Shown one piece after another: positions 1-45,598 of a stretch of 64,000 nt of DNA. The notes beneath the pieces are model-generated. The model was not told where the DNA came from. It saw only the letters and a program-made list of their open reading frames with translations, and did not search any database. Both the position numbers and the translations under genes were made by a program. Every line of letters begins with the position of its first letter. Positions within the stretch are counted from its first letter, which is position 1. Source of the DNA: an uncultured Erysipelotrichaceae bacterium (GTDB taxonomy: Bacteria; Bacillota_I; Bacilli_A; RF39; UBA660); assembly GCA_902776735.1 (NCBI GenBank), contig CACYRE010000001.1, positions 48,395 through 112,394 of the forward strand, given 5' to 3'.

Positions 1-2018
1 AAATCTGGTTCTTCTATATTTGTATCATCTTGAGGAATTTCTTCTTCTGGTGAAGGTTCTGATTTTTCTGGAGTAGGTTCAGAAATCTCTCCTTTATCTA
101 CCATTTTCTTTTCTTCTTCAGATGGTATTCTACCAAATCTAGTTTCTATATAAGATTTAATTATTGTATTAGTGTCATAAGGAGTATCTACTGTAGGTAT
201 TTTAGTTAAATTAATTTTTTTATCTTTAACATCTGCAGAAGGTATAGAATATAAAGTCTCATAAGTGTCTGGATTAAATACTACCTCTATATCTCCAATA
301 TTGAATTGTTCATAAGCTTCATTTATTTTTTGAGATTCTTTAATTACTCCTACTACTTCATTATCAGGAGTTGGTTCTTTTACCCATTCTTTACCAAATA
401 TCATTGCTACTACTTCATCTGTATTAGCAAAAGATAATTCATATTTATCATCTTTATTAGTAACTTCTATATTATATGGAACTTCTACAGCGAAAGCGTA
501 CATTCTATTTTGAATAGCAGGTTTCATTTCTTTCTCAGCTTTTACTTCTTTTGATAATTCTATAAACATTTTAATGTTTTCAATTTCCATTTTTAAATCT
601 AAACGATTATTAATATAATTTTCTACGGTTTCTTTTTCTGTTTTAGCTTTAGCTACTTCAGCTTCTTTAGCTTTTTCTTCTTTAGCTTCTTGAAGAAATT
701 CAGATTCTAACCATTCATATATAGCTTTTTGAGGATTTGTAGTCTTTTTAGAATATTTAGTAGTACCATTTAAATTATTTACTTTAAATTCTACTAAGTT
801 ATTGTTTACTTTTTCTAGAATTAAATTCTTTCCTATAGCAGCATCTTTAATTCCTCTAGATTCAAATTCTTTTAATATTTCAGGTGTAGAAATATCTACT
901 AAAGCATAAGAACTATTTTCGTCTATCTTACTAGAAAGAGTTTTAATATGTCCCCAGTTTTCAGAATAGTTTTCTTTTAAAGCACTATCTACTAAAGTAA
1001 GCATAGCTTCTATATCTGGAGATTGAACATCTCCATCACCTACTTGGTCTAATACAGTTACATCTTGAATTAAATAATCAGGCTCTATTTCTACATCATT
1101 TATTCTAACTATTTCTTCCTCTTTTAAATCTCCAGAATTTAGTTTTTTAGCTCTTTCTTTCATTTCTTTTTCTGTACCAAATACTAGCCATGCTTTTGAT
1201 TTTTTACCAAATATTCCCCATTCTTTACCTTTATATTTAGATGCTTCATATTCATTTTCTGATTCATTAATTGAAGATTCATTTAAATATTCTTCTAATT
1301 TATTAGCTAATTCATTATTTGTTTCTGAATCTCTAATTTCATTTAAAATTCTTTGTAAAACTTCTTTATTTTCTTCTTTATTTTCTAGCATTGCTAAAGT
1401 TTCATTATAAATCTCTTCTTCATTACCTTGAATTTCATCAAAATAATTTCCCATGTCAGAACCATAAAAATCAATAATTTCATTAGCTAAATCAGAAGTT
1501 TCTAATTTTTTATTATGTTTATCTGCCATTTTATCTTGAGTCTTTTTAGAAACTGTAATCTTTTTTAAATGACCTGTTTTTGTATCTCTAATAGATTTAT
1601 TTCCATCTTTATCTACTTCTATTTTATCAGCTTCATTTAAATCTCCAAATGGATTTTCACAGCTAAGATAATAATTATATAATTCTTCAGCATTATCAAA
1701 ATCTTCAGTTTTTCTATTATTAAAATTACCATCATCATCTTGTTGAGCATCTTCAATAAAACTATCAAAGAAATTACATACAGCTTGAGGATTTATTTTA
1801 AATGAATTTTTATAATCATTTATAAAAAGACTTCCTAGTACTATTTCTTGTCTTAATTTCCATAATTGTTCTTTAGTTAAATTATTAGGGTCTATTTTTT
1901 CAGCTTCAGTTAATTTTTTCCTCTTTCTTTTAATGGCTTCTTTTGATTTTCTTTTAATCTCAAATTCTTTTTCTAGACTTTCATTTAAAGCATTAAAAAT
2001 ATTAATATTAGTCTTCAT
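1..2018 (-). CDS. hypothetical highly acidic protein; 3' end runs off window start
   Basis: Continuous minus-strand open frame from ATG at ~2016-2018 to position 1 (checked codons at both ends; absent from ORF track only because no stop in window). N-terminus MKTNINIFNALNESLEKE carries the LNE|S leader-like motif; D/E-rich. Confidence 0.5.
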   Translation of the reverse strand, partial: MKTNINIFNALNESLEKEFEIKRKSKEAIKRKRKKLTEAEKIDPNNLTKEQLWKLRQEIVLGSLFINDYKNSFKINPQAVCNFFDSFIEDAQQDDDGNFNNRKTEDFDNAEELYNYYLSCENPFGDLNEADKIEVDKDGNKSIRDTKTGHLKKITVSKKTQDKMADKHNKKLETSDLANEIIDFYGSDMGNYFDEIQGNEEEIYNETLAMLENKEENKEVLQRILNEIRDSETNNELANKLEEYLNESSINESENEYEASKYKGKEWGIFGKKSKAWLVFGTEKEMKERAKKLNSGDLKEEEIVRINDVEIEPDYLIQDVTVLDQVGDGDVQSPDIEAMLTLVDSALKENYSENWGHIKTLSSKIDENSSYALVDISTPEILKEFESRGIKDAAIGKNLILEKVNNNLVEFKVNNLNGTTKYSKKTTNPQKAIYEWLESEFLQEAKEEKAKEAEVAKAKTEKETVENYINNRLDLKMEIENIKMFIELSKEVKAEKEMKPAIQNRMYAFAVEVPYNIEVTNKDDKYELSFANTDEVVAMIFGKEWVKEPTPDNEVVGVIKESQKINEAYEQFNIGDIEVVFNPDTYETLYSIPSADVKDKKINLTKIPTVDTPYDTNTIIKSYIETRFGRIPSEEEKKMVDKGEISEPTPEKSEPSPEEEIPQDDTNIEEPD

Positions 2019-3606
2019 TCTCTAAGTCCTCCTCTCCATTTATATCTATATCTAAATCTATGTCTTCATCTGGTTCTATAGGAGTTTCTTCTGGTTCTTC
2101 ATTATTTTGAAGTTCTTCAGCAGCTTCAGGATTTATTTCGATTAAACAATTCATTAAATATTCTACTATAGCTTCATGGTCTGGAGTTAATTCTTCACCA
2201 TATCTAGGGTTTAGTTTATTAACTTCATCAAATGTATTAGGAAGTTTTACAAAGTCAAATCTTTGTTCTAATTCAGTTTTATGTTCATCTTCTTCTGTCT
2301 CTTCATTGTTTTCTAAATCTATTTCTTCAGCTTCTTCTAATTTATATGTAGGTCTTAATTTTTGTGCTTGTTTTATAGCACTATCTAAATCATCAAATTG
2401 AGATTGAGCTCCAGAAAATGATTTTTCATCTGAATAATATAAAGTTTGATATTTACCATTAGGTAATTTATTAATTTCTACTCTTTCATTAGAATTTTCA
2501 GGATTTCTTAAAACTTTTGCTAATTCAGCAGATTCATTTATATTACCTGATTTAAGTTTTTGTAATTCATTGGATAAGTTAATTAATTGGTCTTTTTTCC
2601 ATTCAGCATCTTTAATTAAATCTGAAATACTAGATGGAACTCCTCTTTGACCTCTCATTTCAATATAAGGTTCAACTTCTTCGTCAACATCAAAATTTTC
2701 AGCATAAGAAGAAATTTCATCTATTAATTTATTAACATCATTATTTACAATAATATCAACAAACCAGTCTTCTCCTTCTGGTGTATATTGTTGAATTTCC
2801 CAGCCAGTTTCATTTCCAGAAAAATTAACATCTTCATCTTGAATTGTAAAACCACAGTTTTCAATAATTTTCTTAGCTTTTTCTAAATCATTTGAATTAT
2901 CTTCAGCTTCATTTATATTATCAGTATCTATATTATCAGTATCTATATTATCAATTATAGGTTCTTCTTCAGGAATTTCTTCTGAATTAACCTCTTCAGG
3001 TTTAGTATCTACAAGCATTAGAACATCGTCTGAGTCTTCAGCTACTTTACCTATAATATAAATACTATTATTTAAATCTTCTTTATCTGTAATTTGATAT
3101 AAGTTTAAGTCTAAGTCTACTAAAATATCTCTAAGTTCATTTAATTCTTTATCTAATTCAGATTCTTCTTCTATAGGATTTTCTTCTTGGTCTTCTTCAC
3201 TATCTACCGTATCTTCTAATTCTTCTTGATTTTCCAAATCCTCTTCAGCTTTATCTTTTAAATCTTCAATATCATCATCTGCTTCTGTTAATTTAGCAGA
3301 TTCATTTCTTGGAGCGATAGGTTTTACATCCATTGTTAAATCTGCATGGTCTGAATTATCCCAATTTTCTTTAAATTTATTATAAATTTCTATTGCTTCA
3401 TCATCACTTGTTGCACTAAATCTTTTTACATCATTTGCATCTACAGTAATAATATAATTGTTTCCCTTAGAATCAGTTCCAAAATTAAATTTCATTAAAG
3501 ACATAAATCCGTCTCTTGCAATTTCAGTAGCATCCCAGTATTCTTCAGTAGAACCTTCTTTTAATTTTTTATTTTCAGATTCTACTAATTTTAATTTCTT
3601 ATACAT
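2008..3606 (-). CDS. hypothetical very acidic protein (D/E-rich, 532 aa)
   Basis: Long ORF, ATG at 3604-3606 preceded by GGAGA SD; extreme acidic composition; N-term contains KLVESE (LxE). Confidence 0.6.
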   Translation of the reverse strand: MYKKLKLVESENKKLKEGSTEEYWDATEIARDGFMSLMKFNFGTDSKGNNYIITVDANDVKRFSATSDDEAIEIYNKFKENWDNSDHADLTMDVKPIAPRNESAKLTEADDDIEDLKDKAEEDLENQEELEDTVDSEEDQEENPIEEESELDKELNELRDILVDLDLNLYQITDKEDLNNSIYIIGKVAEDSDDVLMLVDTKPEEVNSEEIPEEEPIIDNIDTDNIDTDNINEAEDNSNDLEKAKKIIENCGFTIQDEDVNFSGNETGWEIQQYTPEGEDWFVDIIVNNDVNKLIDEISSYAENFDVDEEVEPYIEMRGQRGVPSSISDLIKDAEWKKDQLINLSNELQKLKSGNINESAELAKVLRNPENSNERVEINKLPNGKYQTLYYSDEKSFSGAQSQFDDLDSAIKQAQKLRPTYKLEEAEEIDLENNEETEEDEHKTELEQRFDFVKLPNTFDEVNKLNPRYGEELTPDHEAIVEYLMNCLIEINPEAAEELQNNEEPEETPIEPDEDIDLDIDINGEEDLENED

Positions 3607-4051: not shown

Positions 4052-5659
4052 TTAATCTTCATAGAATAAATCTGGTGAATTATGATTTTGTATCCATTCT
4101 TCTACTATATTTCTCATATTATCATAAGTTTCTTCATTAGGTATGTCTAATTTAACATCTCTAGTTAATTCTTCTCCATCATTACCTATTGCATATATAT
4201 CAAACTTTATTATATTGTTATCTTCAAAACTTATATTTCCTACTGTAAAATCACTTCCATCAAAAGCATCTTGAATAGCTTTAACTAGATTATTACCAGA
4301 ATCAGTATTAGTATCTTCTTTTAAGTCAGTATTTTCAGATTCACTGGTGTCTTCTAATGGTTGGTCTGGATTAAATTCTTCCCCATCTTTAATAACTTCA
4401 CATCTATCTAAATAATCTTTATCAGCTTCTTCTTTGCTTTCATAAATTTCTGCATTTTCTATTTCACCTTCAGAAAGATTATAATTTTCACCTACTATAT
4501 ATCTAGTTCCTTCAGATTTATCTTCTAGCATATAAATATTACCTTGTTCTTTTACTACTTGTAAATCTTTAACTTCTGTTTGAGCAGCTTCTACTACAAG
4601 TTTCTTTTTCGTTTTTTCTGACTCAGATAACTTATTATAATCATTTATAATATCTTTATCTTTCATCCAAGTATTTCTTATTAAATCTTCTTTATCTTTA
4701 TCTGATAATGAATTATAATAACTTGGGTCATCTATTGCTCCATTATCTAATAATCCTTTTACATAATTATAAAAATCGTCATCATTTACAGGTTTCTTTT
4801 CTATTGGTTTATTTGGTCCGCCTGCTTCTTCTAAAGATTTTTCTGATTCACTATAAAACTCATTTCCGCTAGCTAATCTTTTTCCTCTTTCTATTTGATA
4901 GTTACAAGTTTCTATCCAATCATTAACCATTTGTACTGATAATTTAGCTCCAAAAGAATTAGTATCTATAGCTTCTAAAGCAGCTTTTATTGTTTCCACA
5001 TCAGAAACAAAATCTTCTGGGTCTCCACCTAATTTTTCAGAATATTCTTCTTTTAAAGATTTAGCAGATTCTGATAGATTTCCTCCAGCTTTTACTTTTT
5101 CAAAAGCTTCTTTTCCAGATGCTTCATCGTAATAATAATATCCATAATCCCAAGAAATTTCATCATTTTCTACAGTATATCCAAAAGCTACTACATATTC
5201 ATCACCCATTTTTTGAAGTTTAACTAAAGCAACAGGTTGGCCTCTTCTTTCTGTTTTGTCTAGTATTTCAGCTTTTTCTCCTAGTTTAAATCCTTCTTTT
5301 AAAGATTTAGCAGATTCATCTAAAGTATTCCATTTTTTAAGTTGGTCCATCATAACTACTTGTTTACTAGGTACTTCAACAGTTACATATTTTCCATCTT
5401 CTATTTCTATAATAGGGGCTTCTGTAAATTCTCCTGGTGTATATGAACCATATTTATATGGTACTTTTACTACATCTCCTACTTTAAAATCTTGATTATT
5501 CTCTTCTTTTAAAGGTTTATCACATTCTTGTAATTCAGATTCTAATTTTTCTACTTTAATCTTAGTACCTTCCATAAAAACTCTTTTTTTAATTTTAAAA
5601 GTTTTAGTTTCACTTTCATTAAGTTCTTTTGCTAAATTAAAACTAAGTTTATTTAACAT
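4052..5659 (-). CDS. hypothetical protein with shared 30-aa N-terminal leader (family 2)
   Basis: N-terminus MLNKLSFNLAKELNESETKTFKIKKRVFME nearly identical to adjacent gene 5675..6430; ~95 bp DNA repeat at both 5' ends. Confidence 0.65.
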   Translation of the reverse strand: MLNKLSFNLAKELNESETKTFKIKKRVFMEGTKIKVEKLESELQECDKPLKEENNQDFKVGDVVKVPYKYGSYTPGEFTEAPIIEIEDGKYVTVEVPSKQVVMMDQLKKWNTLDESAKSLKEGFKLGEKAEILDKTERRGQPVALVKLQKMGDEYVVAFGYTVENDEISWDYGYYYYDEASGKEAFEKVKAGGNLSESAKSLKEEYSEKLGGDPEDFVSDVETIKAALEAIDTNSFGAKLSVQMVNDWIETCNYQIERGKRLASGNEFYSESEKSLEEAGGPNKPIEKKPVNDDDFYNYVKGLLDNGAIDDPSYYNSLSDKDKEDLIRNTWMKDKDIINDYNKLSESEKTKKKLVVEAAQTEVKDLQVVKEQGNIYMLEDKSEGTRYIVGENYNLSEGEIENAEIYESKEEADKDYLDRCEVIKDGEEFNPDQPLEDTSESENTDLKEDTNTDSGNNLVKAIQDAFDGSDFTVGNISFEDNNIIKFDIYAIGNDGEELTRDVKLDIPNEETYDNMRNIVEEWIQNHNSPDLFYED

Positions 5660-5674
5660 AATATAAACTCCTTT

Positions 5675-6430
5675 CTATAAAGTATTTTTAATCGGAATAA
5701 TTAAATCTAAATGGTCTTGTAAATCTTGTGTATCTATTCCTCCATATTGTAAATCATTTTGAAATTCTGTTTCAGCGTCAGATTCCCAATCGAATTCAGG
5801 GTCATTTTCTTCAGCCCATTTTTTAGATTCTTCATAATATCCTAAAGCTTCTATTATTTTCTTTTCATCATCTATTAAAGTAAATAAACCAACTTCAATA
5901 CTACCATCATGGTCTGCAGCATCTAATACAAGATTTCCATTTTCAACTGAGATTTCAACTATATCCCATCTACTAATATATTCTTCAAATTCTGATATAT
6001 TTGAAAAAGTAACACCACCATTGCCAGATGGTTTAAAATCAGAATAATTAGAATTATATCCACCCATTAAATATAATCTACCAAAATTCATTTGATTTTC
6101 AATCATTGGTTCTATATTTTCTTTAAAATCATCCCAAATAAGTTCTGAATCGTCATAAAAATCAGAATTTAGCCATTCATCATAACTAGGGATTTCATCC
6201 TCATCATATCCATCAAAATTAGCTTTAATATAATCATTATAAGCTTCTTCACTAGTATCTACTTCAGAAGACCAAATTGTCTGTCTATTTTCATTTTTTA
6301 TATGAAATTCATTTAGTCTTTCTTTTCTAACTCCTGTGCTTTCCATAAAAACTCTTTTTTTAATTTTAAAAGTTTTAGCTTCACTTTCATTAAGTTCTTT
6401 TGCTAAATTAAAACTTAATTTGTTTAACAT
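5675..6430 (-). CDS. hypothetical protein with shared 30-aa N-terminal leader (family 2)
   Basis: N-terminus MLNKLSFNLAKELNESEAKTFKIKKRVFME; paralogous leader to 4052..5659, unrelated C-terminal body. Confidence 0.65.
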   Translation of the reverse strand: MLNKLSFNLAKELNESEAKTFKIKKRVFMESTGVRKERLNEFHIKNENRQTIWSSEVDTSEEAYNDYIKANFDGYDEDEIPSYDEWLNSDFYDDSELIWDDFKENIEPMIENQMNFGRLYLMGGYNSNYSDFKPSGNGGVTFSNISEFEEYISRWDIVEISVENGNLVLDAADHDGSIEVGLFTLIDDEKKIIEALGYYEESKKWAEENDPEFDWESDAETEFQNDLQYGGIDTQDLQDHLDLIIPIKNTL

Positions 6431-6443
6431 AATGTTCTCCTTT

Positions 6444-6719
6444 CTATATTTTTTCTAATATCATTCCTACAGCTGTTTTTTCTTCACCTTGTATAGATAA
6501 AATATCAAAATAAGGTCTGATTATAATATCAAACCCTGAAGGTGTAGCTAAACCTCTTGCAGAAATTACAGCTTTTACAGCTTGATTTACTGCAGGTACA
6601 CCAATACATTTTAGTTCTAATTTATCTACGTTTTTTATATTAGCATAAATTGCTGACGCTAATTTTTTAATATCAGTATCTTTTCCAACTCTAAATTCTG
6701 GTATGTTCTTTGCTTCCAT
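6444..6719 (-). CDS. spoVS: SpoVS-like protein (stage V sporulation protein S homologue)
   Basis: 91 aa; strongly resembles SpoVS core (CIGVPAVNQAVKAVISARGLATPSGFDIIIRPYFDILSIQGEEKTAVGMILE vs SpoVS GAGALNQAVKAVAIARGFVAPSGVDLICIPAF..GEERTAIKLIVE, recalled from memory); RBS AGGAGGTAAAT-ATG. Confidence 0.75.
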   Translation of the reverse strand: MEAKNIPEFRVGKDTDIKKLASAIYANIKNVDKLELKCIGVPAVNQAVKAVISARGLATPSGFDIIIRPYFDILSIQGEEKTAVGMILEKI

Positions 6720-6806
6720 ATTTACCTCCTAATCTACTATTTTTTAGCTCCTAATATAATAAATAATTAGAATGTAAAAAGGTACCAGAATTAAATCTAG
6801 GACCTT

Positions 6807-7196
6807 CTATTTAATATTTTTTAATTTGGCTTTAAACTCTACAATCTTATTTATATCATCATTATCAAAATCCTTGTATTTATCATATAATGATTTTAGT
6901 TCTTTAATTGGATAAGTACTAGTTTTATATTTTGAATCATGATAAATTTTATTTAAATATTTACATCTATTTCTATATAGTCTATAATAGTTACTATGGT
7001 TATTAGTATATTGTTCTTTACATTTTAAAGAACAATATACTTGATTACCATGTTTTTTAATAAATGATTTTTGACATTGTGGACAAACACAGACTAAACT
7101 AGCACTATAAATAATCTTATCTATCATTTTATCTACATATATTTCAATATTTTTTATTAATATTTCTTTTAATTCTTTTTTTAAATCTTCTTCCAT
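6807..7196 (-). CDS. Cys-rich zinc-finger protein (CxxC...HGN...Cx3C...H)
   Basis: CVCPQCQKSF..HGNQVYCSLKC..H pattern; possibly degenerate HNH-like, not assignable. Confidence 0.45.
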   Translation of the reverse strand: MEEDLKKELKEILIKNIEIYVDKMIDKIIYSASLVCVCPQCQKSFIKKHGNQVYCSLKCKEQYTNNHSNYYRLYRNRCKYLNKIYHDSKYKTSTYPIKELKSLYDKYKDFDNDDINKIVEFKAKLKNIK

Positions 7197-7198
7197 AA

Positions 7199-7870
7199 TT
7201 AATATCTCCTATTTAAATCTAATATAAAGTTAAATACTCTAAGTTCTGTATTATATATTGGTGATTCCATAAAATTAAATAGAGCAGGCTTTATAGAATC
7301 ATATTTAACTTTCTTAAAATCTTCTATTAATTTCTTATACCATTTAGAAATATTATTGCTAGAAAGTACTACTCTATTTAAAAAAGTTAGTAAACTCATT
7401 TCTATATATTCAGCACCTACTTTATCCAGTAATTGTAAATAAGTTTTAGATATAGTAACTGTATCAGTATTAAAACTTCTAAGAAATTCTAAGAAAGCTC
7501 CAGTATTATCATATTCTTTCATTTGCCATTTACCAGTAATCCACATATATTCTATTTGGTCTCTAAAAGTAAAATCGTCTAAATCTTGATAAAATTCTAA
7601 TAAGTATTTAGGAACTTTTCTTTTCCACTTAGAAAATACTATGTCTAATAAAGTTAATCTATCTGTTAAATCTATTTCACCTGCTGCAGATACTGATATA
7701 TAATTCACTCCTAAATTCTTAATTTTATTTAAATATTTAGTTTCACCAGTCCATATAATATTTCTATCTGATAATAATATAGGTTTATCTAAAACTATAT
7801 AATCTGGATATAAGAATTGTAATAAACCTATATCATCTATTTTTACACTATGATTTATAATACTAATCAT
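7199..7870 (-). CDS. hypothetical protein
   Basis: ORF tightly packed (3-nt gap to downstream gene). Confidence 0.5.
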   Translation of the reverse strand: MISIINHSVKIDDIGLLQFLYPDYIVLDKPILLSDRNIIWTGETKYLNKIKNLGVNYISVSAAGEIDLTDRLTLLDIVFSKWKRKVPKYLLEFYQDLDDFTFRDQIEYMWITGKWQMKEYDNTGAFLEFLRSFNTDTVTISKTYLQLLDKVGAEYIEMSLLTFLNRVVLSSNNISKWYKKLIEDFKKVKYDSIKPALFNFMESPIYNTELRVFNFILDLNRRY

Positions 7871-7873
7871 TTT

Positions 7874-10048
7874 CTACCTCTTTATATTATTTCTTTTACA
7901 ATAAACAATTATTGTACTTTTATCTCTATTTAATTTTTTAGCTATTTTTCCATAAGATATGTTTTTAATATTATTTTTTATAAATTCTTTTTCTTCTTCT
8001 GTTAAATAATTAATATTCTTTTTATATTCTATATAATTTAATCTACAATAGTTTCTTATTGTAGCTTCTGCTCTATTTAATTTTTCTATCATTTCTTTAA
8101 GTGTCATATTTTTAGCATTTTTCTTTATAAAATCTCTTTCTTCTTCTGATAAAAGTGAATAACCCCTTTTTCTTGTATGTTTATATTCTATATTATTTTT
8201 ATTATAATATTCTCTAATTGTAGCTTCAGCTCTATTTAATTTATCCATCATTTCTTTAATAGTCATATTTTTAGCATTTTCTTCTATAAAATCTTTTTCT
8301 TCTTCTGATAAATAATGAGAGATTTTTATATATTCTATATTATTTCTATCACAATAAGCATTTATTACAGACATACTTCTATTTAGTTTTTTTGCTAATT
8401 CTTTAGATGTCATAGTTATAGCATTTTTCTTTATAAAGTCTTTTTCTTCTTCTGTAAAAGGATTATAATCTTTTTTATGTTCTATATTATTTCTATAATA
8501 ATAACCACTTATTGTTGGTGTACATCTATTTAGCTTTTTTGCTATTTCTTTAATAGTCATATTTTTAGCATTTTCTTCTATAAATTTTTTTTCCTTTTCA
8601 GATAAAAAATAAAATTCTTTTTTATATTCTATATTATTTCTATCACAATAATCTCTAATTGTAGCTTCTGGTCTATTTAATTTTATTGTTAATTCTTTAA
8701 TAATCATATTTTTAGCATTTTCTTCTATAAATTTTTTTTCTTCCTCTGATAAAAGATAAATTTCTTTTTTATATTTTATATTATTTCTTTTATAATATTG
8801 TCTTATAGTATAAGGTTTTTTATTTAGTTTTTTTGCTATTTCTTTAGTTGTCATAGTCATAGCATTTTCTTCTATAAATTTTTTTTCTTCTTCTGATAAA
8901 TAAATAATTGTATGAGTGTTTTCTTTAATTAAATTTATTAAATTTTCTTGTTTTGTATAGATTTTTAATTTTTCTTTCTTCTTTCCTATTTTAATATCAG
9001 AAACTTTTATATTTCTTTTTTTAGCAAAATTTTCCCAAATAGATATATAACCACTATCTAAATTATATGCATTATTAACTAAATCAAATACTATAGCATC
9101 TTCTCTATGTTCTGAAATTATTCTACCTAATTGTTGTTGATATATAATATTACTTCTAGTTTTTCTTAAGAATACTGCTACATCTATATTAGATAAATGT
9201 ATACCTTCAATAAACATATTTACTGAATATAATATATTTATTCCTTTTTTAGAATTATAAAAATCATTTAATATTTGATTATTAAGTTTATTAGATTTTT
9301 TAGAATGTATATCAAAATTATTAACATCTCTATCTATCCATAATTTTATAAAATTTTTTGCTTGTTCTATATCATTAATTCTAGATACAAATACTATAAT
9401 ATGAAGAGGTTTACTATAATCTATAAATTCTTCAAATATATTTTTTACTTTAGTATTTATATCATAATTAGATAATTTCTTTTGCAAAGCTTTATTTTTA
9501 TAATATCTATAATCTATTTCATAAATAGAAGAAACATATTTTATTTGAGGTAATATTCCTCGTTCTATAGATTCAGCTAAATATAAAGGTTCTATTTCTT
9601 CATTATTAAATATTAATTCTATAGGATTCTTACCATCCATTCTTTCAGGAGTAGCACTAAATCCTATCATTTTACCTTTATAATCTTCTAAGTCTTTCTT
9701 TAATATATTACCCCATTTTTCTGTAACTGACCTATGCATTTCGTCTAAAAATATATAGTCATAATCTAATAAAGACTTATGATTAAAATTTTGTTTTAGT
9801 AAATTACTATATATTATAAAATCTGTATTATTATAATTTCCAAATTCTTTAATATATTCAACAATATTATCTCTAGGTTCTATAATAAGTTTCTTTCCTA
9901 GAAGCTCATCACATAATTCCATTATAATATGAGATTTACCAAAACCTACTGGTCTTACTACACCAAATTTATCACAAGTCTTTAATTTTTCTAATATTAA
10001 ATTTTTAGTCTTTATTCTTTCTATAGATAGTAAACTTTTATCAAACAT
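7874..10048 (-). CDS. SF2 helicase-like ATPase fused to eight tandem helix-turn-helix repeats
   Basis: Walker A VGFGKSH, DExH-like FLDEMHR, SATP motif, QQLGRIIS; C-terminal 8 x ~46-aa repeats LSEEEKxFIEENAKNMTIKEIAKKLNRxxxTIRxYxxRNNIEYKK (HTH-like); promoter TTTACA-N17-TATAAT upstream. Confidence 0.7.
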   Translation of the reverse strand: MFDKSLLSIERIKTKNLILEKLKTCDKFGVVRPVGFGKSHIIMELCDELLGKKLIIEPRDNIVEYIKEFGNYNNTDFIIYSNLLKQNFNHKSLLDYDYIFLDEMHRSVTEKWGNILKKDLEDYKGKMIGFSATPERMDGKNPIELIFNNEEIEPLYLAESIERGILPQIKYVSSIYEIDYRYYKNKALQKKLSNYDINTKVKNIFEEFIDYSKPLHIIVFVSRINDIEQAKNFIKLWIDRDVNNFDIHSKKSNKLNNQILNDFYNSKKGINILYSVNMFIEGIHLSNIDVAVFLRKTRSNIIYQQQLGRIISEHREDAIVFDLVNNAYNLDSGYISIWENFAKKRNIKVSDIKIGKKKEKLKIYTKQENLINLIKENTHTIIYLSEEEKKFIEENAMTMTTKEIAKKLNKKPYTIRQYYKRNNIKYKKEIYLLSEEEKKFIEENAKNMIIKELTIKLNRPEATIRDYCDRNNIEYKKEFYFLSEKEKKFIEENAKNMTIKEIAKKLNRCTPTISGYYYRNNIEHKKDYNPFTEEEKDFIKKNAITMTSKELAKKLNRSMSVINAYCDRNNIEYIKISHYLSEEEKDFIEENAKNMTIKEMMDKLNRAEATIREYYNKNNIEYKHTRKRGYSLLSEEERDFIKKNAKNMTLKEMIEKLNRAEATIRNYCRLNYIEYKKNINYLTEEEKEFIKNNIKNISYGKIAKKLNRDKSTIIVYCKRNNIKR
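7900..9000 (-). repeat. eight imperfect tandem ~138-bp repeats encoding the HTH repeat array
   Basis: Protein-level 46-aa repeats within CDS 7874..10048. Confidence 0.6.
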
Positions 10049-10083: not shown

Positions 10084-10112
10084 ATTATATCATAAGATTT
10101 TATAAATGTAAA
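10084..10112 (-). promoter_or_regulatory. sigma-A/sigma-70-type promoter TTTACA-N17-TATAAT (extended -35 TTATTTACATTT)
   Basis: Minus strand TTATTTACA|TTTATAAAATCTTATGA|TATAAT, ~25 nt upstream of SD for helicase-HTH gene. Confidence 0.7.
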
Positions 10113-11611: not shown

Positions 11612-12331
11612 CTAGCTATTTGATTGATTTTCAAGCTTCTTTTTAATTTCTTCCATTGATAAACCATTTATAAGACCATCTCTAATTTCTTCCATTTGAT
11701 TACTATCAAATTCTGGTTTAGCATAAGTTAATACTTGTTCCATAGATAAATCATAAAAACCGTATCTAATTTGTCTCATTTGATATTTATCAAATTCTGG
11801 TTTAGCATAAACCTGTATTTCTTCCATAGACAAGTTACGGTCAAAACCATTTCTAATTTCTTCCATTTGTTCACTGCTAAATTCTGGCTTAGCATAAACT
11901 TGTACTTCTTCTATAGATAAACCATCATAAAAACCATCACTAATTTTATCCATTTGATTTTCATTAAATTCTGGTTTAGCATAAACTAATACTTGTTCCA
12001 TAGATAAACCATTTCTAAAATCTACTCTGATTATATGCATCTGGTTTTTATTAAATTCTGGTTTAGCAAATAATAATACTTGTTCCATAGATAAACCATT
12101 ATAAAATCCATTTCCAATTTCATACATTTGACCATTATCAAATTCAGGTTTAGCATAAACTTGTACTTCTTCCATAGATAAGCCATGTCTAAAGCCATTT
12201 TTAATTTCATTCATTTGCCATTTATCAAATTGTCCACTTTCTTCGCACTGTTTAATAAAGTTATCTTCTGTAGTCCCTTCATTTAAATTATTTTGAATAC
12301 TTTCTAATAATTTCATTGTATCATTTTTCAT
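11612..12331 (-). CDS. leader-bearing repeat protein (family 1 leader MKNDTMKLLESIQNNLNE; 7 x ~33-aa repeats)
   Basis: N-terminal 18 aa identical to 12336..12719 (57-bp identical DNA); body is 7 tandem repeats GFxxGLSMEEVQVYAKPEFxxxQMxxI. Confidence 0.65.
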   Translation of the reverse strand: MKNDTMKLLESIQNNLNEGTTEDNFIKQCEESGQFDKWQMNEIKNGFRHGLSMEEVQVYAKPEFDNGQMYEIGNGFYNGLSMEQVLLFAKPEFNKNQMHIIRVDFRNGLSMEQVLVYAKPEFNENQMDKISDGFYDGLSIEEVQVYAKPEFSSEQMEEIRNGFDRNLSMEEIQVYAKPEFDKYQMRQIRYGFYDLSMEQVLTYAKPEFDSNQMEEIRDGLINGLSMEEIKKKLENQSNS

Positions 12332-12335: not shown

Positions 12336-12719
12336 TTACCTTCTTAATATTTTTAATTGTTCATTAGCACATTGGTCTAACAAATCAATAACTTCTTCAA
12401 TAGATACACCTGTTTTTTCTTTTCTGTTGATTGCTTTATTGTCTTTTATAATATCTACATAAATATCATAATCATCACTGTGTTTATTATATCCAATAAA
12501 ACCTAGTCTTATAGAAGTACCACCAGATATATAACCTTTACTATCATATATATCAGCAGCAAATCCAATATTTCCTGTACCAGTATCATATTGATAAACA
12601 AATTTATATACTTTATTTATTGTAGAAGTTAACATAGATATAAATTGTTCTTTATTTATATCACTCTCATTTAAATTATTTTGAATACTTTCTAATAATT
12701 TCATTGTATCATTTTTCAT
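12336..12719 (-). CDS. leader-bearing protein (family 1 leader MKNDTMKLLESIQNNLNES)
   Basis: Identical leader to 11612..12331, unrelated body. Confidence 0.6.
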   Translation of the reverse strand: MKNDTMKLLESIQNNLNESDINKEQFISMLTSTINKVYKFVYQYDTGTGNIGFAADIYDSKGYISGGTSIRLGFIGYNKHSDDYDIYVDIIKDNKAINRKEKTGVSIEEVIDLLDQCANEQLKILRR

Positions 12720-12776
12720 AATAATATTCTCCTTTTTTAATATTTTCTAATATTATATATAAAATTAATACTAATT

Positions 12777-13583
12777 TTAATCTAATTCTTCAGACCTTAT
12801 AGTAAACTCACCATCAAATTCTTCATTATATTCGTCTGGATTTATTCTTTTATATTTACCTGTCATAGTATTCTCTATTTCAACCATAAAACCATTCATT
12901 AATTTGTCATGAGCAAATAAAGTAGCTTCAGTCCAGTCATTAGTTTTTAATTCATCTTCTGTATCATGTAATTTATAATCATAATAAGAGCATACGATAT
13001 ATTTTGTATCATTACTAATTTCATTTAAACTACTTTGAATACTTTCTAATAAATTTCTAGTTTTACTTCTAAATTCAATAGATTCATTTACATTAGATAA
13101 TCCTAATTTCTTTTCAACAATTTCTTTATGATTATCATGTATTTTACCTTCATTATATAAATTTTCTAGAGTTTGTTTTAATATATCAACATCTTTAGAA
13201 AATACTTGAATTATTTTTTTTGGACTTCCTTTTGTTTTTCTATATGGAAGACGAACACTTCCATAAGCCATATATTGATTATCTGGAATAGTTGTAATAG
13301 AATTTTGATTAACTTCCATTATTAAAGTATCAGGTAGTTCTAAATCATCTGTTAATTTTGGATTATCTCCATAAACATTCTCACTTTGATAAATTGCAAA
13401 ACCAACATGTAGAATATCATTTCCAGCAATTCCATTTATAAATTCACTTTGATTCTCTCCTAGATATAATCTAATAAAACAAGTATCTCCTCCTAAAGCT
13501 CCTAAAGATATGCTTATTCCACTATTAGGAAATCTTTGTTTATATGCATTTTCTATTTGAGATTTAAACTCACCATAAGTCAT
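12777..13583 (-). CDS. two-domain protein with internal family-1 leader-like segment (RNLLESIQSSLNEIS at ~aa 170)
   Basis: Internal copy of LLESIQxxLNE motif between two domains; RBS AGGAGGAAATAAAAAATG. Confidence 0.6.
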   Translation of the reverse strand: MTYGEFKSQIENAYKQRFPNSGISISLGALGGDTCFIRLYLGENQSEFINGIAGNDILHVGFAIYQSENVYGDNPKLTDDLELPDTLIMEVNQNSITTIPDNQYMAYGSVRLPYRKTKGSPKKIIQVFSKDVDILKQTLENLYNEGKIHDNHKEIVEKKLGLSNVNESIEFRSKTRNLLESIQSSLNEISNDTKYIVCSYYDYKLHDTEDELKTNDWTEATLFAHDKLMNGFMVEIENTMTGKYKRINPDEYNEEFDGEFTIRSEELD

Positions 13584-13597
13584 TTTTTATTTCCTCC

Positions 13598-15634
13598 TTA
13601 TAATACTTGAATAGCTCCAGTAGATGCAAAATAAAATCCACTAAAATCTAAGTCTCTACCTAAAGCTCCATAATCAAAATAATCAGATAAATCATTTCCA
13701 TCTGCAATATCTATTTCTAATTGTTCTTCTACTACAGAGTCTAACCATTCTTCTACTAGGTCATAAAATTCATCACTACCTTCATCTATATCTGGGTTAT
13801 CATCTCTTACAGATTCTTCAGCTGCTTCTCTCCAGCTTTCTCTATAAGCTTTTTCATCAATATAATTTTCTTTATTAGCTACTCCTTCAAAACCTCCAAT
13901 CATATCTACCCAGGCTTCACCTAATTCTTCTTCAGTTTCTACTCCTGGAAAGAATATATAATCCCCAGATTCTAATATATCCATACAAGTATCAAAATCA
14001 TCATTTTGGTCTTCCATTATAGCAGTAAAAGCAGCTCTTTCATCTTCTGATAATTCTTCAATCTTTTCAAGCTGTTCAATAACTACCCAAGGATTTGAGT
14101 ATTCATCTATAGTAAAAGGAATATCTCCTTCAGTATCATTTATAAATGGTTCTTCATCTTTATGTGCTTCTAAAAATTCTTTAGCTTGTTCTAATTTCAT
14201 CCAACCACCATTTATTTGTTCTACATCTGCTCCATTTTCATTATAATTTCCCCAAGTATTCATAAATAATTCAATATTTAATGGATTATATTCTTCTGTT
14301 AATAAACCTTTTTCTATACTATCTTTTCTTACATTTTCTAAACTAGATTCTTCTAATTGACTTAATTTATCCATTAGAAAATCTCTTTTAGACTCTAAAC
14401 CAGAAATATTTTTATTTGGGTCAGAATTTGCTATACTATCTTGTACTTTTTCTAATTCTTTCTTTATAGTTTCAGCATAATCTTTTCTTGTTTTATTTGA
14501 TACTGATTCAGACAACATATCATAAACTTCTTGTGTTTCATATCTTATTATATGTTTTCCATCTTTATCAGTTCCATTATACATAGGACCTAAATAACCT
14601 TTAAATTGTAATTGATTATCTAATTCTTCTCTTGGAACTACACCACCATTATTTCTATATTTTGAATTATCAGGAGATAATTTATCTTCTTTTATTGGTA
14701 ATTTTTCTGCTTCTTCTCTTGTATAAGTTCCAGCATAATCACCACCAACTAATTGATAGACATAATTATTATAATCAGCCTCTTCATTTAAAGCTGATTC
14801 ATCATATTCCTCAAAATCAAAGTTTTGATTTACTTCTTCTAAAAATTCATCTAAATAATTATCATTTACAGAATCTAAATCTGTATTTCTTAATGCAAAC
14901 ATTATTACTTGAACCATTGATTGCCAGGTTTTTGACCTATTAAAATCTTCTATATTATTAGGCATTGATGAAATAAAACCAGAACTAGAAGAATAATTTG
15001 ATTTTAAAAAGTTTTCAAATTCACTATTTGATAAAGCTTCTTTTCTTAAATTTTCATATTCATCTTGATTTACTTCTAAATTAAATTCTAGCTCGTCTCC
15101 TGAATAATTATATTGACTTGGATGATAAACTTTATTTGCTATAATTTTAGCACTTGGAAGAACTTCTTGTATTGTTTTTTCTATATATTTTGGAGCAATA
15201 TCTTCTATTATTTTATCTAATTCTTCTAATGAAGCACTATCTGGTAATCTGTCACTTAAAGAATACATATCAACATTTATTATTGGAAGTACCCCAGTAT
15301 TTAAATCTATATCTAAATTAGCTCCAGATTCATTTAAATTAGATTCATCTAATGATATACTTCCATAACCTTTATATTCTTCATATCCTTGGTCTTTTAA
15401 TTCTCTTGCTTTTTGTCTTAATGCTTTGCTTGTTAATTTTTTATGTTTATTTAAAGGCATTGTTTGACTATTAACAAATTGAAATTGTTTAGTTTCATTA
15501 TTTATAATTAAACCTAAAATACTAAAGTTAAATTGATTTTTAGACACATAGGTTTCGTCACCAGATAACATTTTTTTGTCATCTTCTTTTAAATTTGCTT
15601 GAATATTTTCAAATAACTTTTTTGTTCCTGACAT
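13598..15634 (-). CDS. large leader-bearing protein (MSGTKKLFENIQANLKED)
   Basis: 678 aa; N-terminus fits family-1 leader consensus; RBS AGGAGGATTAAAATG. Confidence 0.65.
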   Translation of the reverse strand: MSGTKKLFENIQANLKEDDKKMLSGDETYVSKNQFNFSILGLIINNETKQFQFVNSQTMPLNKHKKLTSKALRQKARELKDQGYEEYKGYGSISLDESNLNESGANLDIDLNTGVLPIINVDMYSLSDRLPDSASLEELDKIIEDIAPKYIEKTIQEVLPSAKIIANKVYHPSQYNYSGDELEFNLEVNQDEYENLRKEALSNSEFENFLKSNYSSSSGFISSMPNNIEDFNRSKTWQSMVQVIMFALRNTDLDSVNDNYLDEFLEEVNQNFDFEEYDESALNEEADYNNYVYQLVGGDYAGTYTREEAEKLPIKEDKLSPDNSKYRNNGGVVPREELDNQLQFKGYLGPMYNGTDKDGKHIIRYETQEVYDMLSESVSNKTRKDYAETIKKELEKVQDSIANSDPNKNISGLESKRDFLMDKLSQLEESSLENVRKDSIEKGLLTEEYNPLNIELFMNTWGNYNENGADVEQINGGWMKLEQAKEFLEAHKDEEPFINDTEGDIPFTIDEYSNPWVVIEQLEKIEELSEDERAAFTAIMEDQNDDFDTCMDILESGDYIFFPGVETEEELGEAWVDMIGGFEGVANKENYIDEKAYRESWREAAEESVRDDNPDIDEGSDEFYDLVEEWLDSVVEEQLEIDIADGNDLSDYFDYGALGRDLDFSGFYFASTGAIQVL

Positions 15635-16130: not shown

Positions 16131-16718
16131 TTAATTTCCTTCCTTCTCAATAAATTTATCATCTAATTCTTGAAGTAATCCTTCGACCCATTCTTGTAAT
16201 TCTGGATATAATTTTATAGTATCTTTATTTGAGTTATAATATTGATTTGCTGTATCTCCAAAGACATATCCCATAGCTTGCCAGTCACAAATCATTTCTA
16301 TATAAGCTTTCTTTACTTCTACTAAATCTGTCATAGGAGTTAATTCTCCACTTTCATCTGTCCAATATTGCCAATGATGAGGATTATTTCTAAAATGATG
16401 ATACCAAGCTGCTTGAAAATTAGCTTCATTTGCTGTTTTTTCTTCATCATTTACTGGATTATAATTAGCTCTATAAGCATCAAACTCCTCTTCTCCCCAT
16501 TTAGATAAGTCATGTTTTTCTATTTGTTTAGTTAACTCATCATAATTTTCTTTAATAAAATCATCATCTAAAGTAGATACTTGTTCTAACCAAGCTTTTT
16601 GCACATTTTGTATATGAGAATCTACATATTGAGAATAATCATTAATGCATTTATCTAAGTCTTCAGATTCAGTTATATTTTTCTGTATACTTTCTAATAA
16701 ATTTTTAGTCATTGACAT
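16131..16718 (-). CDS. leader-bearing protein (MSMTKNLLESIQKNITESE); start refined from ORF-track 16757 to 16718
   Basis: Strong SD GGGGAGGATTAAT 8 nt upstream of ATG at 16718; ORF-track extension MWYNICVLRGGLI overlies a perfect TTTACA-N17-TGnTATAAT promoter, so is not coding. Confidence 0.65.
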   Translation of the reverse strand: MSMTKNLLESIQKNITESEDLDKCINDYSQYVDSHIQNVQKAWLEQVSTLDDDFIKENYDELTKQIEKHDLSKWGEEEFDAYRANYNPVNDEEKTANEANFQAAWYHHFRNNPHHWQYWTDESGELTPMTDLVEVKKAYIEMICDWQAMGYVFGDTANQYYNSNKDTIKLYPELQEWVEGLLQELDDKFIEKEGN

Positions 16719-16745
16719 TATTAATCCTCCCCTTAACACACATAT

Positions 16746-16774
16746 ATTATACCACATTTTTAATGAAATGTAAA
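16746..16774 (-). promoter_or_regulatory. promoter TTTACA-N17-TGnTATAAT
   Basis: Minus strand TATTTACA|TTTCATTAAAAATGTGG|TATAAT with extended -10 TG; drives leader-protein gene 16131..16718. Confidence 0.7.
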
Positions 16775-22114: not shown

Positions 22115-22732
22115 TTATACTACCTCTATTATTGGTTCTCCTGATAAACTAATTGTTTTAGTATCTCCACTTGCTCCTAATAATTTTATGCTAGATGTAT
22201 CTACTATATCTACTTGTAAATTACAATCTACTATTGGATTTCCTGATGAATAAGTTCTAATTAAATTAATAAAATCAATTACTCTAAAAGGATATGGAAC
22301 CATTCCACAACTAGTATTAAATGAAGCTATAGTAGATACAGTTTCATTACGTTCAAAACTACCATTTTTTCCTATAATACCACAAATAAATATACCATTA
22401 TTAATTGAAAAATATAGTTTACCCATAATATAAGTATTACTAATATAAGAAACAGCACACTCAGAAATAGTTATAAATCCTGTGATTTCACTTCCATCAG
22501 TATTTAATACCATTTCTTTTTCCTCATCAGTTGTATTATTATCTATTAAATTAACTAAGTATTCTAGTCTATATTTAACTCTAGAATTAGCTTTTAAATG
22601 TCTATTCTTGACTGAATCATCTAAAGTTCCAACTATATCAAATATTTGAACATCTTTCTTTATATTGTTTGAAATAATTTTTTCATTTTTTTCATTTAAA
22701 ATTTCTTGAGCTTTTTCTTTTAAAGTACTCAT
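22115..22732 (-). CDS. receptor-binding/tail-fibre-like protein, paralogue A1 (shared N-term MSTLKEKAQEILNEKNEKIIS)
   Basis: N-terminal ~35 aa near-identical to 24044..24826 and similar to 56285..57037; divergent C-terminus. Confidence 0.55.
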   Translation of the reverse strand: MSTLKEKAQEILNEKNEKIISNNIKKDVQIFDIVGTLDDSVKNRHLKANSRVKYRLEYLVNLIDNNTTDEEKEMVLNTDGSEITGFITISECAVSYISNTYIMGKLYFSINNGIFICGIIGKNGSFERNETVSTIASFNTSCGMVPYPFRVIDFINLIRTYSSGNPIVDCNLQVDIVDTSSIKLLGASGDTKTISLSGEPIIEVV

Positions 22733-22751: not shown

Positions 22752-23243
22752 TTAATTTCCTAAAATCTCATCGAGAATAGCTTCTATTTCTTCTTCAGTT
22801 CCACCCATTCCGTCATAACTATCTGAAGTTCCATCAATATCATTTAAAATATCCATTACTTCTTCAGCATCTGGAACAGGAGTTGGTTCTGGTGATGGTC
22901 CTGGCCCTATTTCACTATTATTAGCGATTTGAACTATTCCTTTTAATAGAGTAGTTTCTGTTGGTTCTACTTTATCAGGATTTGTATATACTTGAGTTAT
23001 TTCTCCAGGAGTAATAAATTTAATATCATCAGAAGAACCTGCAATAACTGCATTATTCTTTAATATTCTTTTCATTGCTTCTGGTGTTATACTTTCTACA
23101 GTAACTATAGTTCCATCTTCTAAAGTAACTTCTCTTTGAAAAGCTATTTTGCTATCAGAGCTATCAATATTATCATTAATAACATGAACAAAACCTAATT
23201 CTGTAGTAGAATCATTTAATGTATTCTGTTTTAATTTTTCCAT
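22752..23243 (-). CDS. paralogue B1 (shared N-term LKQNTLxxSTTELGF...EVTLEDGT)
   Basis: N-terminal module shared with 23316..24020. Confidence 0.5.
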   Translation of the reverse strand: MEKLKQNTLNDSTTELGFVHVINDNIDSSDSKIAFQREVTLEDGTIVTVESITPEAMKRILKNNAVIAGSSDDIKFITPGEITQVYTNPDKVEPTETTLLKGIVQIANNSEIGPGPSPEPTPVPDAEEVMDILNDIDGTSDSYDGMGGTEEEIEAILDEILGN

Positions 23244-23315: not shown

Positions 23316-24020
23316 TTAAATGCTTTCAGCTGAGTCAAGTAACCAATCAAGTTTTTCTGAGTCATATTCTAATAATGAAGTTGGTGTTCCAGAAGATAAA
23401 TTATTTTGTATAGCATTTATTTCTTCTAATACAAACTCATCTATAGAAGCTGGTTCGTATTGTCCTGTTTGACTTACTGAGTACCAACCTGCTTTTTCAA
23501 ATCCAGATGCTTGAGCCATATTTTGAGTAATATACATTAATCCATAACGTTCAGAGTCTTTATAAAATGAAATTCCTATAAAAGGCATTTTATTTATATA
23601 TGATGTTACTATTCCAATACCATTATCTATATTGCCGATACCAATAAATACTGAATTATCTTGAATATTTAAAAATTCAGCTAATTCCTCAATACTCATA
23701 TTATCTATAGTATCTAATCTTTCTTTAAGTTTAAATTTATATGAGCTTCCTAAAGTAATAGTATCAAATTTTTGTTCTGGAGAATCCCCATTATATATTT
23801 GTACTACTCCATTCAATTCAACATCTCCATTTATATATGGTTCTCCTGGAGTTTTAAAAGTAATACCTAATTTTGTAGCTAACATTGCAGGAGTAATTCC
23901 ATTTATCATAGTTTTTGTTCCATCTTCTAAAGTAACTTCTTGTTGAAGAGGAATATTTGTTTCAGCTGGAAAACCTAACTCTGTAGTTGCTTCAGCTAAA
24001 TTGTTTTGTTTTAAAGCCAT
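23316..24020 (-). CDS. paralogue B2 (shared N-term MALKQNNLAEATTELGF...EVTLEDGT)
   Basis: N-terminal module shared with 22752..23243. Confidence 0.5.
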   Translation of the reverse strand: MALKQNNLAEATTELGFPAETNIPLQQEVTLEDGTKTMINGITPAMLATKLGITFKTPGEPYINGDVELNGVVQIYNGDSPEQKFDTITLGSSYKFKLKERLDTIDNMSIEELAEFLNIQDNSVFIGIGNIDNGIGIVTSYINKMPFIGISFYKDSERYGLMYITQNMAQASGFEKAGWYSVSQTGQYEPASIDEFVLEEINAIQNNLSSGTPTSLLEYDSEKLDWLLDSAESI

Positions 24021-26013: not shown

Positions 26014-26073
26014 TAAATCTTACTCCTTTCTGTAATTATTCTATAACTAATTATTCTTCCTAATTAAATATAT

Positions 26074-26103
26074 AAAAGTGTAACATCATTTAGTTACACT
26101 TTT
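26074..26103 (-). terminator. intrinsic terminator (11-bp stem AAAAGTGTAAC/GTTACACTTTT, 8-nt loop, flanking T/A runs; potentially bidirectional)
   Basis: Between 26133..26321 stop and 24841..26013 start. Confidence 0.65.
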
Positions 26104-40887: not shown

Positions 40888-40916
40888 ATTATATCATAAT
40901 TATTTAAAAATGTAAA
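40888..40916 (-). promoter_or_regulatory. promoter TTTACA-N17-TATAAT
   Basis: Minus strand TATTTACA|TTTTTAAATAATTATGA|TATAAT upstream of 40473..40808. Confidence 0.7.
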
Positions 40917-42944: not shown

Positions 42945-42947
42945 AAT

Positions 42948-45569: not shown

Positions 45570-45598
45570 TACTTAATATAATTATAATACAAATTTTT
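45570..45598 (-). promoter_or_regulatory. promoter TTTACA-N17-TATAAT (overlaps palindrome AAATGTAAATACATTT)
   Basis: Minus strand TATTTACA|TTTACAAAAATTTGTAT|TATAAT upstream of small-gene operon 45495->. Confidence 0.7.

Follow-up and report, generated by a model that had tools for sequence, protein, structure and literature searches.

Two adjacent genes of a phage known from metagenome assemblies begin with almost the same 30 codons, and the peptide that they encode is probably a bipartite capsid-targeting propeptide of the T4 type, borne by cargo proteins that would be injected into the host. The genes lie in a stretch of 64,000 nucleotides (hereafter, the window) recorded under an uncultured Erysipelotrichaceae bacterium (GTDB lineage Bacteria; Bacillota_I; Bacilli_A; RF39; UBA660; GenBank assembly GCA_902776735.1, contig CACYRE010000001.1, positions 48,395 to 112,394 of the forward strand). 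The G+C content of the window is 25%, and every gene in it is on the minus strand. The window itself carries baseplate, lysis and replication genes. Coordinates refer to the window unless another locus is named, and an arrow in a sequence motif marks a putative cleavage site.

A leader shared by two adjacent genes

The two genes encode proteins of 251 and 535 residues. Both open reading frames (ORFs) are intact, and each is preceded by AGGAG.

5675..6430, minus strand: gene of the 251-residue protein (from the ORF list), a 30-residue leader followed by an acidic body
4052..5659, minus strand: gene of the 535-residue protein (from the ORF list), the same leader, then six small modules with LxE linkers between them
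6341..6433, minus strand: leader repeat copy 1 (repeat family D9), 3 nt of upstream sequence plus codons 1–30 of the 251-residue protein gene
5570..5662, minus strand: leader repeat copy 2 (repeat family D9), 3 nt of upstream sequence plus codons 1–30 of the 535-residue protein gene
6437..6441, minus strand: Shine-Dalgarno AGGAG seen in the sequence, 6 nt ahead of the ATG of the 251-residue protein gene
5668..5672, minus strand: Shine-Dalgarno AGGAG seen in the sequence, 8 nt ahead of the ATG of the 535-residue protein gene

Residues 1–30 of both proteins read MLNKLSFNLAKELNESE[A/T]KTFKIKKRVFME. An earlier sequence-only reading of the window had reported near-identical 30-residue N-termini on these ORFs, encoded by a direct repeat of about 95 bp; 29 of the 30 residues are indeed identical, and a comparison of 5570..5662 with 6341..6433 gave identity at 89 of 93 nt, with three of the four substitutions being synonymous. 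An exact 36-nt core of the repeat occurs twice in the window, where none was expected from 100 shuffles. The repeat extends from 3 nt 5′ of the ATG to exactly the Glu30 codon (...VFME), beyond which the DNA identity is at the background level. The statement of that reading that the genes then diverge completely holds for the DNA, whereas the proteins retain a weak common pattern, [SG]-x-x-[VI]-x-x-x-x-L-x-E, to about residue 41.

An assembly artefact, a doubt raised by the sequence-only reading, was not borne out. The 251-residue protein is recorded on 8 contigs, and the diverged relative L001 carries the same pair with synonymous differences between its leaders. The neighbouring 127-residue protein is found on 10 contigs, 8 of which are 50–200 kb long. 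An exact look-up of the 251- and 535-residue proteins returned no record, and independent assemblies were counted only. A k-mer-based Logan contig stops 60 nt into the 535-residue protein gene, within the repeat, which is consistent with an assembler halting at a genuine repeat. The repeat is confirmed as real.

Conservation of the leader peptide

Each leader can be divided into two parts of 15 residues, both ending at a Glu residue in a putative cleavage site.

6386..6430, minus strand: leader part 1 of the 251-residue protein, MLNKLSFNLAKELNE; predicted helix ending at the putative site L13-N-E15↓S16
6341..6385, minus strand: leader part 2 of the 251-residue protein, SEAKTFKIKKRVFME; basic (net +3), ending at the putative site F28-M-E30↓S31
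5615..5659, minus strand: leader part 1 of the 535-residue protein, MLNKLSFNLAKELNE; putative site L13-N-E15↓S16
5570..5614, minus strand: leader part 2 of the 535-residue protein, SETKTFKIKKRVFME; putative site F28-M-E30↓G31

In the AlphaFold2 (AF2) models, the leader helix spans residues 5–15 of the 251-residue protein and residues 2–17 of the 535-residue protein. The leader is carried by 31 protein clusters, which have a median identity of 81% over residues 1–16 compared with 22% over residues 46–145. In these 31 leaders, positions 1–9 and 13–16 are nearly invariant, KIKKK and Glu30 are also conserved, and the conservation collapses directly after Glu30. The LxE sites that had been picked out in the leader from the window alone are the LNE15 and FME30 contexts, and their Glu residues are almost invariant in the relatives. 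The first context is LNE15↓S and the second is [FLI]xE30↓S/G, with F-M-E30 in the window and L-I-E or I-I-E in relatives.

The paralogous leaders of L001 show five synonymous and no nonsynonymous codon differences in codons 1–16. Because these paralogues differ only synonymously, selection acts on the leader peptide and not on the DNA. The two leader copies within one genome evidently evolve in concert; residues specific to a lineage are common to both paralogues of each genome (F7 and AKE10–12 in the window phage, Y7 and ANS in L001). Recent gene conversion, in addition to peptide selection, best explains why the leader DNA of the two window genes is nearly identical. The leader DNA pattern was not found in IMG/VR or GTDB genomes. 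A secretion signal was also considered for the leader and rejected on sight, as the leader has no hydrophobic core.

Modular structure of the 535-residue protein

The AF2 model of the 535-residue protein, which drew on 46 related sequences, consists of six modules with predicted local distance difference test (pLDDT) values mostly above 90. Segments with pLDDT <50 are residues 17–19, 27–54, 115–122, 200–210, 279–289, 349–355 and 433–456, and these low-confidence segments coincide with the leader sites and with tandem LxE linkers, which are predicted to be disordered. The predicted template modelling score (pTM) is 0.31, and the model accordingly defines no arrangement of the modules relative to each other.

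5294..5323, minus strand: linker 1 (repeat family D17), residues 113–122, LDE↓SAKSLKE↓; pLDDT <50 at residues 115–122
5048..5077, minus strand: linker 2 (repeat family D17), residues 195–204, LSE↓SAKSLKE↓; pLDDT <50 at residues 200–210
4826..4855, minus strand: linker 3, residues 269–278, YSE↓SEKSLEE↓; pLDDT <50 at residues 279–289
4589..4630, minus strand: linker 4, residues 344–357, LSE↓SEKTKKKLVVE↓; pLDDT <50 at residues 349–355
4292..4363, minus strand: linker 5, residues 433–456, containing L446-K-E448↓D; pLDDT <50 at residues 433–456

An exhaustive search with the 535-residue protein returned 197 representative proteins at E ≤ 1e-3, in which the modules occur in varied order. Among the best 150 of the 197, 26 start with MLNKLS. 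A different LxE[SGA] leader is present in at least 49 others, and some of these leaders are hybrids, such as MKTFVNIFNELNESETK.FQIKKKVFMEG. Modules 3 and 6 are also found as small stand-alone proteins (P0260, P0257, P0197, P0272, P0274, P0296, P0301 and P0308), in which the module comes right after the L-x-E of the leader at the same offset as from an internal linker. Module 3 always starts directly after L-x-E, stand-alone proteins included, and module 6 follows L-[KNT]-E at its internal position as well as in the stand-alone leader-plus-module proteins. We refer to the 535-residue protein as a putative polyprotein cargo.

Origin of the gene pair

In the AF2 model of the 251-residue protein, residues 1–44 have a pLDDT of about 30 and the body of about 75, and the body is predicted to be one folded domain. 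The body is acidic, with an isoelectric point (pI) of 4.05, and the orthologues P0002 and P0003 are 58% identical. The same body is found within the single-leader polyproteins P0186, P0201, P0215, P0228 and P0288. In P0186, it occupies residues 45–243 and is followed by more modules, including module 5 of the 535-residue protein. As a separate gene, the 251-residue body has a leader of its own. In place of the two leader genes of the window and L001, a single long one is present in L017 and L019. Because the body lies in single-leader polyproteins and L017 and L019 have one long gene, the window pair looks like a split polyprotein gene with the leader present on both halves. Each half would have kept or received a leader copy, and in the window lineage the two copies would recently have been homogenised by gene conversion, which would account for their near-identical DNA. 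This arrangement is indirect evidence on two points: cargo that is translated separately would require a leader of its own, and delivery would depend on the leader.

The locus is syntenic in L001, L017 and L019, with a SpoVS-like gene, the leader gene or genes, the 127-residue protein gene and a gene beginning MYKKLKLVES. The gene order is also the same in L018, although the contig stops upstream of the leader gene. Relatives carry differing sets of modules behind the same leader, and the locus is highly mosaic. The SpoVS-like protein of the window (6444..6719, 91 residues; phrog_35646 at 1e-14, Pfam SpoVS in L001) is encoded always directly upstream of the leader gene or genes in L001, L017 and L019.

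Head machinery of the phage

To go beyond the window, window proteins were looked up in public assemblies, relatives were found with the tape-measure protein, and searches were made with the capsid protein and protease of those relatives. A look-up of the protease P0102 led to L013, on the contig of L005, and to L016, on the contig of L003; L005 and L003 overlap the high-coordinate end of the window. Because their contigs are those of L005 and L003, the head genes of L013 and L016 belong to the window phage.

The phage encodes a Portal_T4 (gp20-type) protein, a Peptidase_S77 (gp21-type) protease and a Gp23 capsid protein (L013, L016), together with gp13-, gp19-, gp25- and gp53-like proteins. 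The S77 protease (L013 10001..10690) matches Pfam at 66.9 bits (cutoff 27) and phrog_207 at 1.6e-44. It also aligns with T4 gp21 (PDB 5JBL) at E=1e-7, across the GESNHP and SRGAGS segments. The capsid protein (L013 11341..12735) scores 175 bits to Gp23 and matches the T4 gp23 structures. Its N-terminus, MVVDKIALKE↓GE...KALKE↓SA...PKILTE↓AGTQ, contains putative sites and lies before the region that aligns with mature gp23.

Several further observations were made outside the window. A scaffold-like protein of 290 residues is encoded at L013 9114..9986, and the S77 protease is present on contigs of roughly 120–130 kb. The protease begins MKQILNE↓Q...LFE↓A and has NTLTE↓S near its C-terminus, and these LxE sites suggest self-processing, as discussed for T4 gp21. 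A 67-residue ORF before the portal gene (L013 5297..5500) begins MNIGQNIISNILNE↓K. The capsid protein gene is flanked by an HNH-type gene (L013 10700..11164) and a DUF7487/helix-turn-helix homing-endonuclease-like gene (12845..14191). The capsid gene of L008 is interrupted, although a run of undetermined bases is also present there in the record. Beyond window coordinate 1, L002 7202..8569 encodes a Cpn60/GroEL-like phage chaperonin of 455 residues.

Related leaders on other proteins

The leader of the pair, in its residues 1–16 (MLNKLSFNLAKELNES), is one version of a type found on many proteins of the phage. Further leaders of this type are MKNDTMKLLESIQNNLNE[S/G] (two genes), MKTNINIFNALNES, MKDLNTFNFINSLNES, MYKKLKLVESENKKLKEG and MNKSTVDILNKLNES. 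The last of these is on a 389-residue protein, the gene of which has a gp13-like neck gene on one side and the sheath gene on the other. The motif [LIF][NKT]E[SG], starting at residues 9–21, is present in 9 of 129 phage proteins against 2.1 expected (P about 3e-4), and one of these proteins is encoded within the structural module (L013 15509..16678). Leader proteins occupy the equivalent structural position in relatives (three in L006 and one in L007). The structural module of L008 encodes a leader protein of 508 residues (6716..8242) that contains modules 1 and 3 of the 535-residue protein.

The MKNDTMKLLESIQNNLNE[S/G] leader family comprises window ORFs 11612..12331, 12336..12719, 13598..15634 and 16131..16757, the annotated start of the last being probably 13 codons too early. 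The first 54 nt are 100% identical in two adjacent genes of this family, looser versions read MSGTKKLFENIQANLKE and MSMTKNLLESIQKNITES, and all members end in an L/I-x-E context. Two other pairs of genes share N-termini. One pair (22115..22732 and 24044..24826) has MSTLKEKA.EIL[NT]EKNEKIIS, encoded by a 90-nt repeat of 90% identity and containing I-L-x-E, and the other (22752..23243 and 23316..24020) has the common pattern M.LKQN.L...TTELGF. At 2008..3606, a very acidic mosaic leader protein of 532 residues begins MYKKLKLVESENKKLKEG; its termini are conserved and its middle is swapped for other inserts, with relatives of 230, 397, 428 and 745 residues in L019, L001, L017 and L018, respectively.

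Proposed mechanism and comparison with T4

In T4, the internal proteins have N-terminal propeptides of 10–19 residues (capsid-targeting sequences, CTSs) that direct them into the prohead core and are then removed, and gp21 cleaves after the short motif L/I-x-E (PMC9026906). We propose, at the probability given at the outset, that the 30 shared residues work in this manner on injected cargo. During prohead assembly, the N-terminal amphipathic helix (residues 1–15) and the basic segment (residues 16–30) would dock the protein onto the scaffolding core. The gp21-type (S77) prohead protease would cut after Glu15 (L-N-E↓S) and Glu30 (F-M-E↓S/G), and this cleavage would free the acidic cargo within the head. 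The 535-residue protein would also be cut at its tandem LxE linkers, giving about six small proteins. The mature acidic products would remain inside the head until their ejection, together with the DNA, into the host. We infer packaging, cleavage and ejection by analogy with T4. A targeting or propeptide module was one of two options offered in the sequence-only reading, and it has gained from the S77 protease, from the gp23-type capsid protein with its LxE propeptide and from the retention of the leader across 31 clusters.

The CTS of T4 (IPI, IPII, IPIII and Alt, with gp21) is the closest system that we found. In both cases, a short N-terminal propeptide is placed on otherwise unrelated proteins and ends in hydrophobic-x-Glu, the gp21 motif, and both genomes encode proteins of the gp21, gp20 and gp23 families. 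The leaders of T4 IPII and IPIII are identical (PMC9026906), and the internal proteins of T-even phages are a diverse set having only the targeting sequence in common (PMC3012670). As in T4, the cargo genes differ from one relative to another and are located at a distance from the main head genes (PMC9026906, PMC3012670). The present leader differs in its length of 30 residues with two conserved cleavage contexts, compared with 10–19 residues in T4, and it is known from sequence alone. The cargo here is large and very acidic, and one of the two proteins is a six-module chain with protease-type linkers.

Several points weigh against the proposal. The leader genes are located downstream of replication-type genes, at a great distance from those of the head. 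The phage itself is known from metagenomes only. The cargo bodies are very acidic (pI 4.05–4.3), which is unusual for proteins embedded in packaged DNA; the abundant internal proteins of T4 are basic. The T4 leader is MKTYQEFIAE, and no sequence similarity of the present leader to it was recognisable on inspection, peptides of 10–15 residues being too short for a homology test. The second site has Phe at the P3 position (VFME), where the canonical residue is Leu or Ile. At the first site, the P1 residue is Asp (LNDS) in one relative; in T4, such a change to Asp blocks cleavage but not targeting (PMC9026906). Finally, [LIVFMY]xE is common in these Glu-rich proteins, occurring in 61% of random 22-residue windows, and single LxE coincidences therefore carry little weight. 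A test of this loose motif before the modules was dropped because of that background, and the arguments from the fixed offset and the N-terminal position were kept.

Alternative explanations

The leader may instead be a functional N-terminal module with another job, such as docking to a different phage or host partner, acting as a degradation or localisation tag, or forming a membrane-associating helix. Such a role would agree with the position of the genes among non-structural genes and with the strongly acidic cargo, which is atypical for DNA-embedded head proteins, and peptide-level conservation would fit any protein-level function. We nevertheless consider it unlikely, because the two invariant Glu residues are in the exact context of gp21-type cleavage and the conservation stops at the second of them. 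In addition, the same kind of leader is present on proteins encoded in the head and neck gene block, the capsid propeptide has the same L-x-E-[S/G/A] motif, and the leader lacks the hydrophobic core typical of secretion signals.

The other option of the sequence-only reading was a recombination scar that lets downstream domains be swapped. Cargo swapping is a probable consequence of the shared leader, given the varied modules behind it and its concerted evolution, and in this sense the scar is not a rival to the propeptide. As a rival, it would make the repeat a functionless by-product of recent tandem duplication or gene conversion, as the 96% DNA identity over 93 nt with sharp edges, the concerted evolution of the paralogues and the mosaic locus might suggest. 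This is improbable in view of the age and constancy of the peptide. The leader was already present when the window phage and L001 diverged (the identity of their bodies is 58%), and five synonymous codons have drifted in the L001 paralogues with no amino-acid change in codons 1–16. Across the 31 diverged clusters, the peptide is kept at 81% against 22% in the bodies, which neutral remnants would not do.

We also considered that the element acts as nucleic acid, for instance by initiating translation, by forming a regulatory RNA structure or by binding a protein on both mRNAs. The near-identical DNA of the two window copies includes the 3 nt upstream of the ATG, as such an element might. However, the folding energies are like those of shuffled sequence (z = −0.6 and +0.2), Rfam gave no match, promoter-like sites are not in excess, and relatives change synonymous positions while keeping the peptide, so that this explanation is very improbable. 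Mis-assembly of metagenomic reads, which the metagenomic source and the Logan contig ending within the repeat could bring to mind, has next to no chance against the contig counts given above, the diverged leader DNA of the L001 pair and two intact ORFs with an AGGAG each.

Comparison with other systems

The proposed bipartite capsid-targeting propeptide can also be compared with processed inner-head or ejection paralogues of giant phages (SPN3US gp53/gp54 and phiKZ gp93–95). The paralogues SPN3US gp53 and gp54 have the same first 15 residues, in which protease motifs are present (PMC5694885), and their propeptides have several redundant sites that are cut after Glu by a gp21-related protease (PMC5694885, PMC9026906). 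The giant-phage proteins are homologous throughout (pfam12699) and have an A/S-x-E motif, unlike the window pair with its unrelated bodies and T4-like L-x-E motif. The window pair has no Pfam match and hence no membership of pfam12699.

Polyvalent proteins of phages and conjugative elements are multi-domain proteins for which delivery alongside the DNA and processing to separate units have been predicted (Iyer, Burroughs, Anand, de Souza and Aravind 2017; PMC5512222), and they are thought to be processed by their own metallopeptidase (MPTase) domain (PMC5512222). The likeness lies in several distinct domains per polypeptide and in extensive mosaicism (six modules and 197 representatives here). 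By Pfam, however, the window pair has no MPTase or other hallmark domain (ArdC-N, LPD). Processing here would be in trans by the prohead protease, and entry would be via the N-terminal leader. The anti-restriction Dar proteins of phage P1 are likewise accessory sets loaded into the head and injected to protect the incoming DNA, and P1 DdrB is proteolytically processed before packaging into the head (summarised in PMC5512222). They have no sequence relationship to the present proteins and follow another loading logic.

Cargo function, relatives and expression

The 251- and 535-residue proteins belong to no family in PHROGs or Pfam, and comparison of their AF2 models with BFVD and PDB gave no significant fold match. 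LPD11 was detected in 1 of 46 related proteins, and P0189, a relative with module 3, carries this domain. A YodL-like domain was found in 1 of 10 large relatives scanned (P0226), and the orthologue of 12777..13583 has a faint ArdA match. Because these links to counter-defence domains are weak and confined to neighbours and relatives, an anti-defence role of the cargo is only a guess. Neither gene gave a match in INPHARED by megablast or tblastn, and only distant matches were obtained for the polymerase. The 251-residue family was not found in IMG/VR.

A sigma-70 scan showed no enrichment. A candidate phage promoter motif was seen, and its copy upstream of the leader-gene operon is too loose to use. 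Promoter-like sequences fall into two classes, a sigma-70-like TTTACA-N17-TATAAT (repeat family D10) and TATATA(W)nTTAGRR near ribosome-binding sites. Examples of intergenic sites are as follows.

10084..10112, 40888..40916, 45581..45609 and 46877..46905: intergenic promoter-like sites, first list
12745..12761, 26058..26074, 29445..29459, 50501..50517 and 57567..57582: intergenic promoter-like sites, second list

With the TATATA motif in a looser regular-expression form, 9 of 15 gene-strand matches (five distinct sites) are located in the non-coding portion, which is 12% of the window. On inspection of L013, with no formal scan, motifs of the TATATA type also precede the genes of the capsid protein, a 291-residue protein, a 174-residue protein and the baseplate.

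Other features of the window

In a protein of 724 residues (7874..10048), repeated helix-turn-helix units (LSEEEKKFIEENAKNMT.KE.A.KLNR...) are encoded by six tandem repeats of 147 nt, and its N-terminal part (FGVVRPVGFGKSH...) appears helicase/ATPase-like on inspection. DUF7487 proteins related to it adjoin capsid and tail genes. ARAGORN reported a tRNA-like gene with a four-base anticodon (gtat) at 42947..43028, within a 973-nt gap free of ORFs. A protein of 534 residues (51002..52606) has seven 72-nt tandem repeats and matches large uncharacterised PHROG families. Located 5 kb away, a 250-residue protein (56285..57037) has related copies of the 72-nt repeat and a 93-nt C-terminal end in common with the 534-residue protein.

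Implications

If the shared leader is a capsid-targeting propeptide, the leader together with the LxE rule would provide a listing, from sequence only, of the head-carried, injected proteins of a T4-like phage that has not been cultured. In this genome, at least ten proteins would qualify, and public metagenomes contain hundreds of related mosaic proteins. The T4 principle of capsid targeting would be extended to a distant, AT-rich lineage known only from metagenome assemblies, as well as to multi-module polyprotein cargo that is cut in trans by the prohead protease. The window pair would serve as a natural experiment, in which a polyprotein gene splits and each half keeps the leader. As already achieved with T4, a leader this short and portable could also serve to bring foreign proteins into such phages.

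We put forward more tentatively, as a possibility somewhat short of even, that this clade loads its heads with long acidic polyproteins by means of the bipartite leader, that the protease dices them at the LxE linkers into small injected proteins, and that the modules are shuffled among hundreds of genes, with a leader copy added at each gene split. If so, these phages would possess a combinatorial, protease-released arsenal of injected proteins that is recognisable from sequence.

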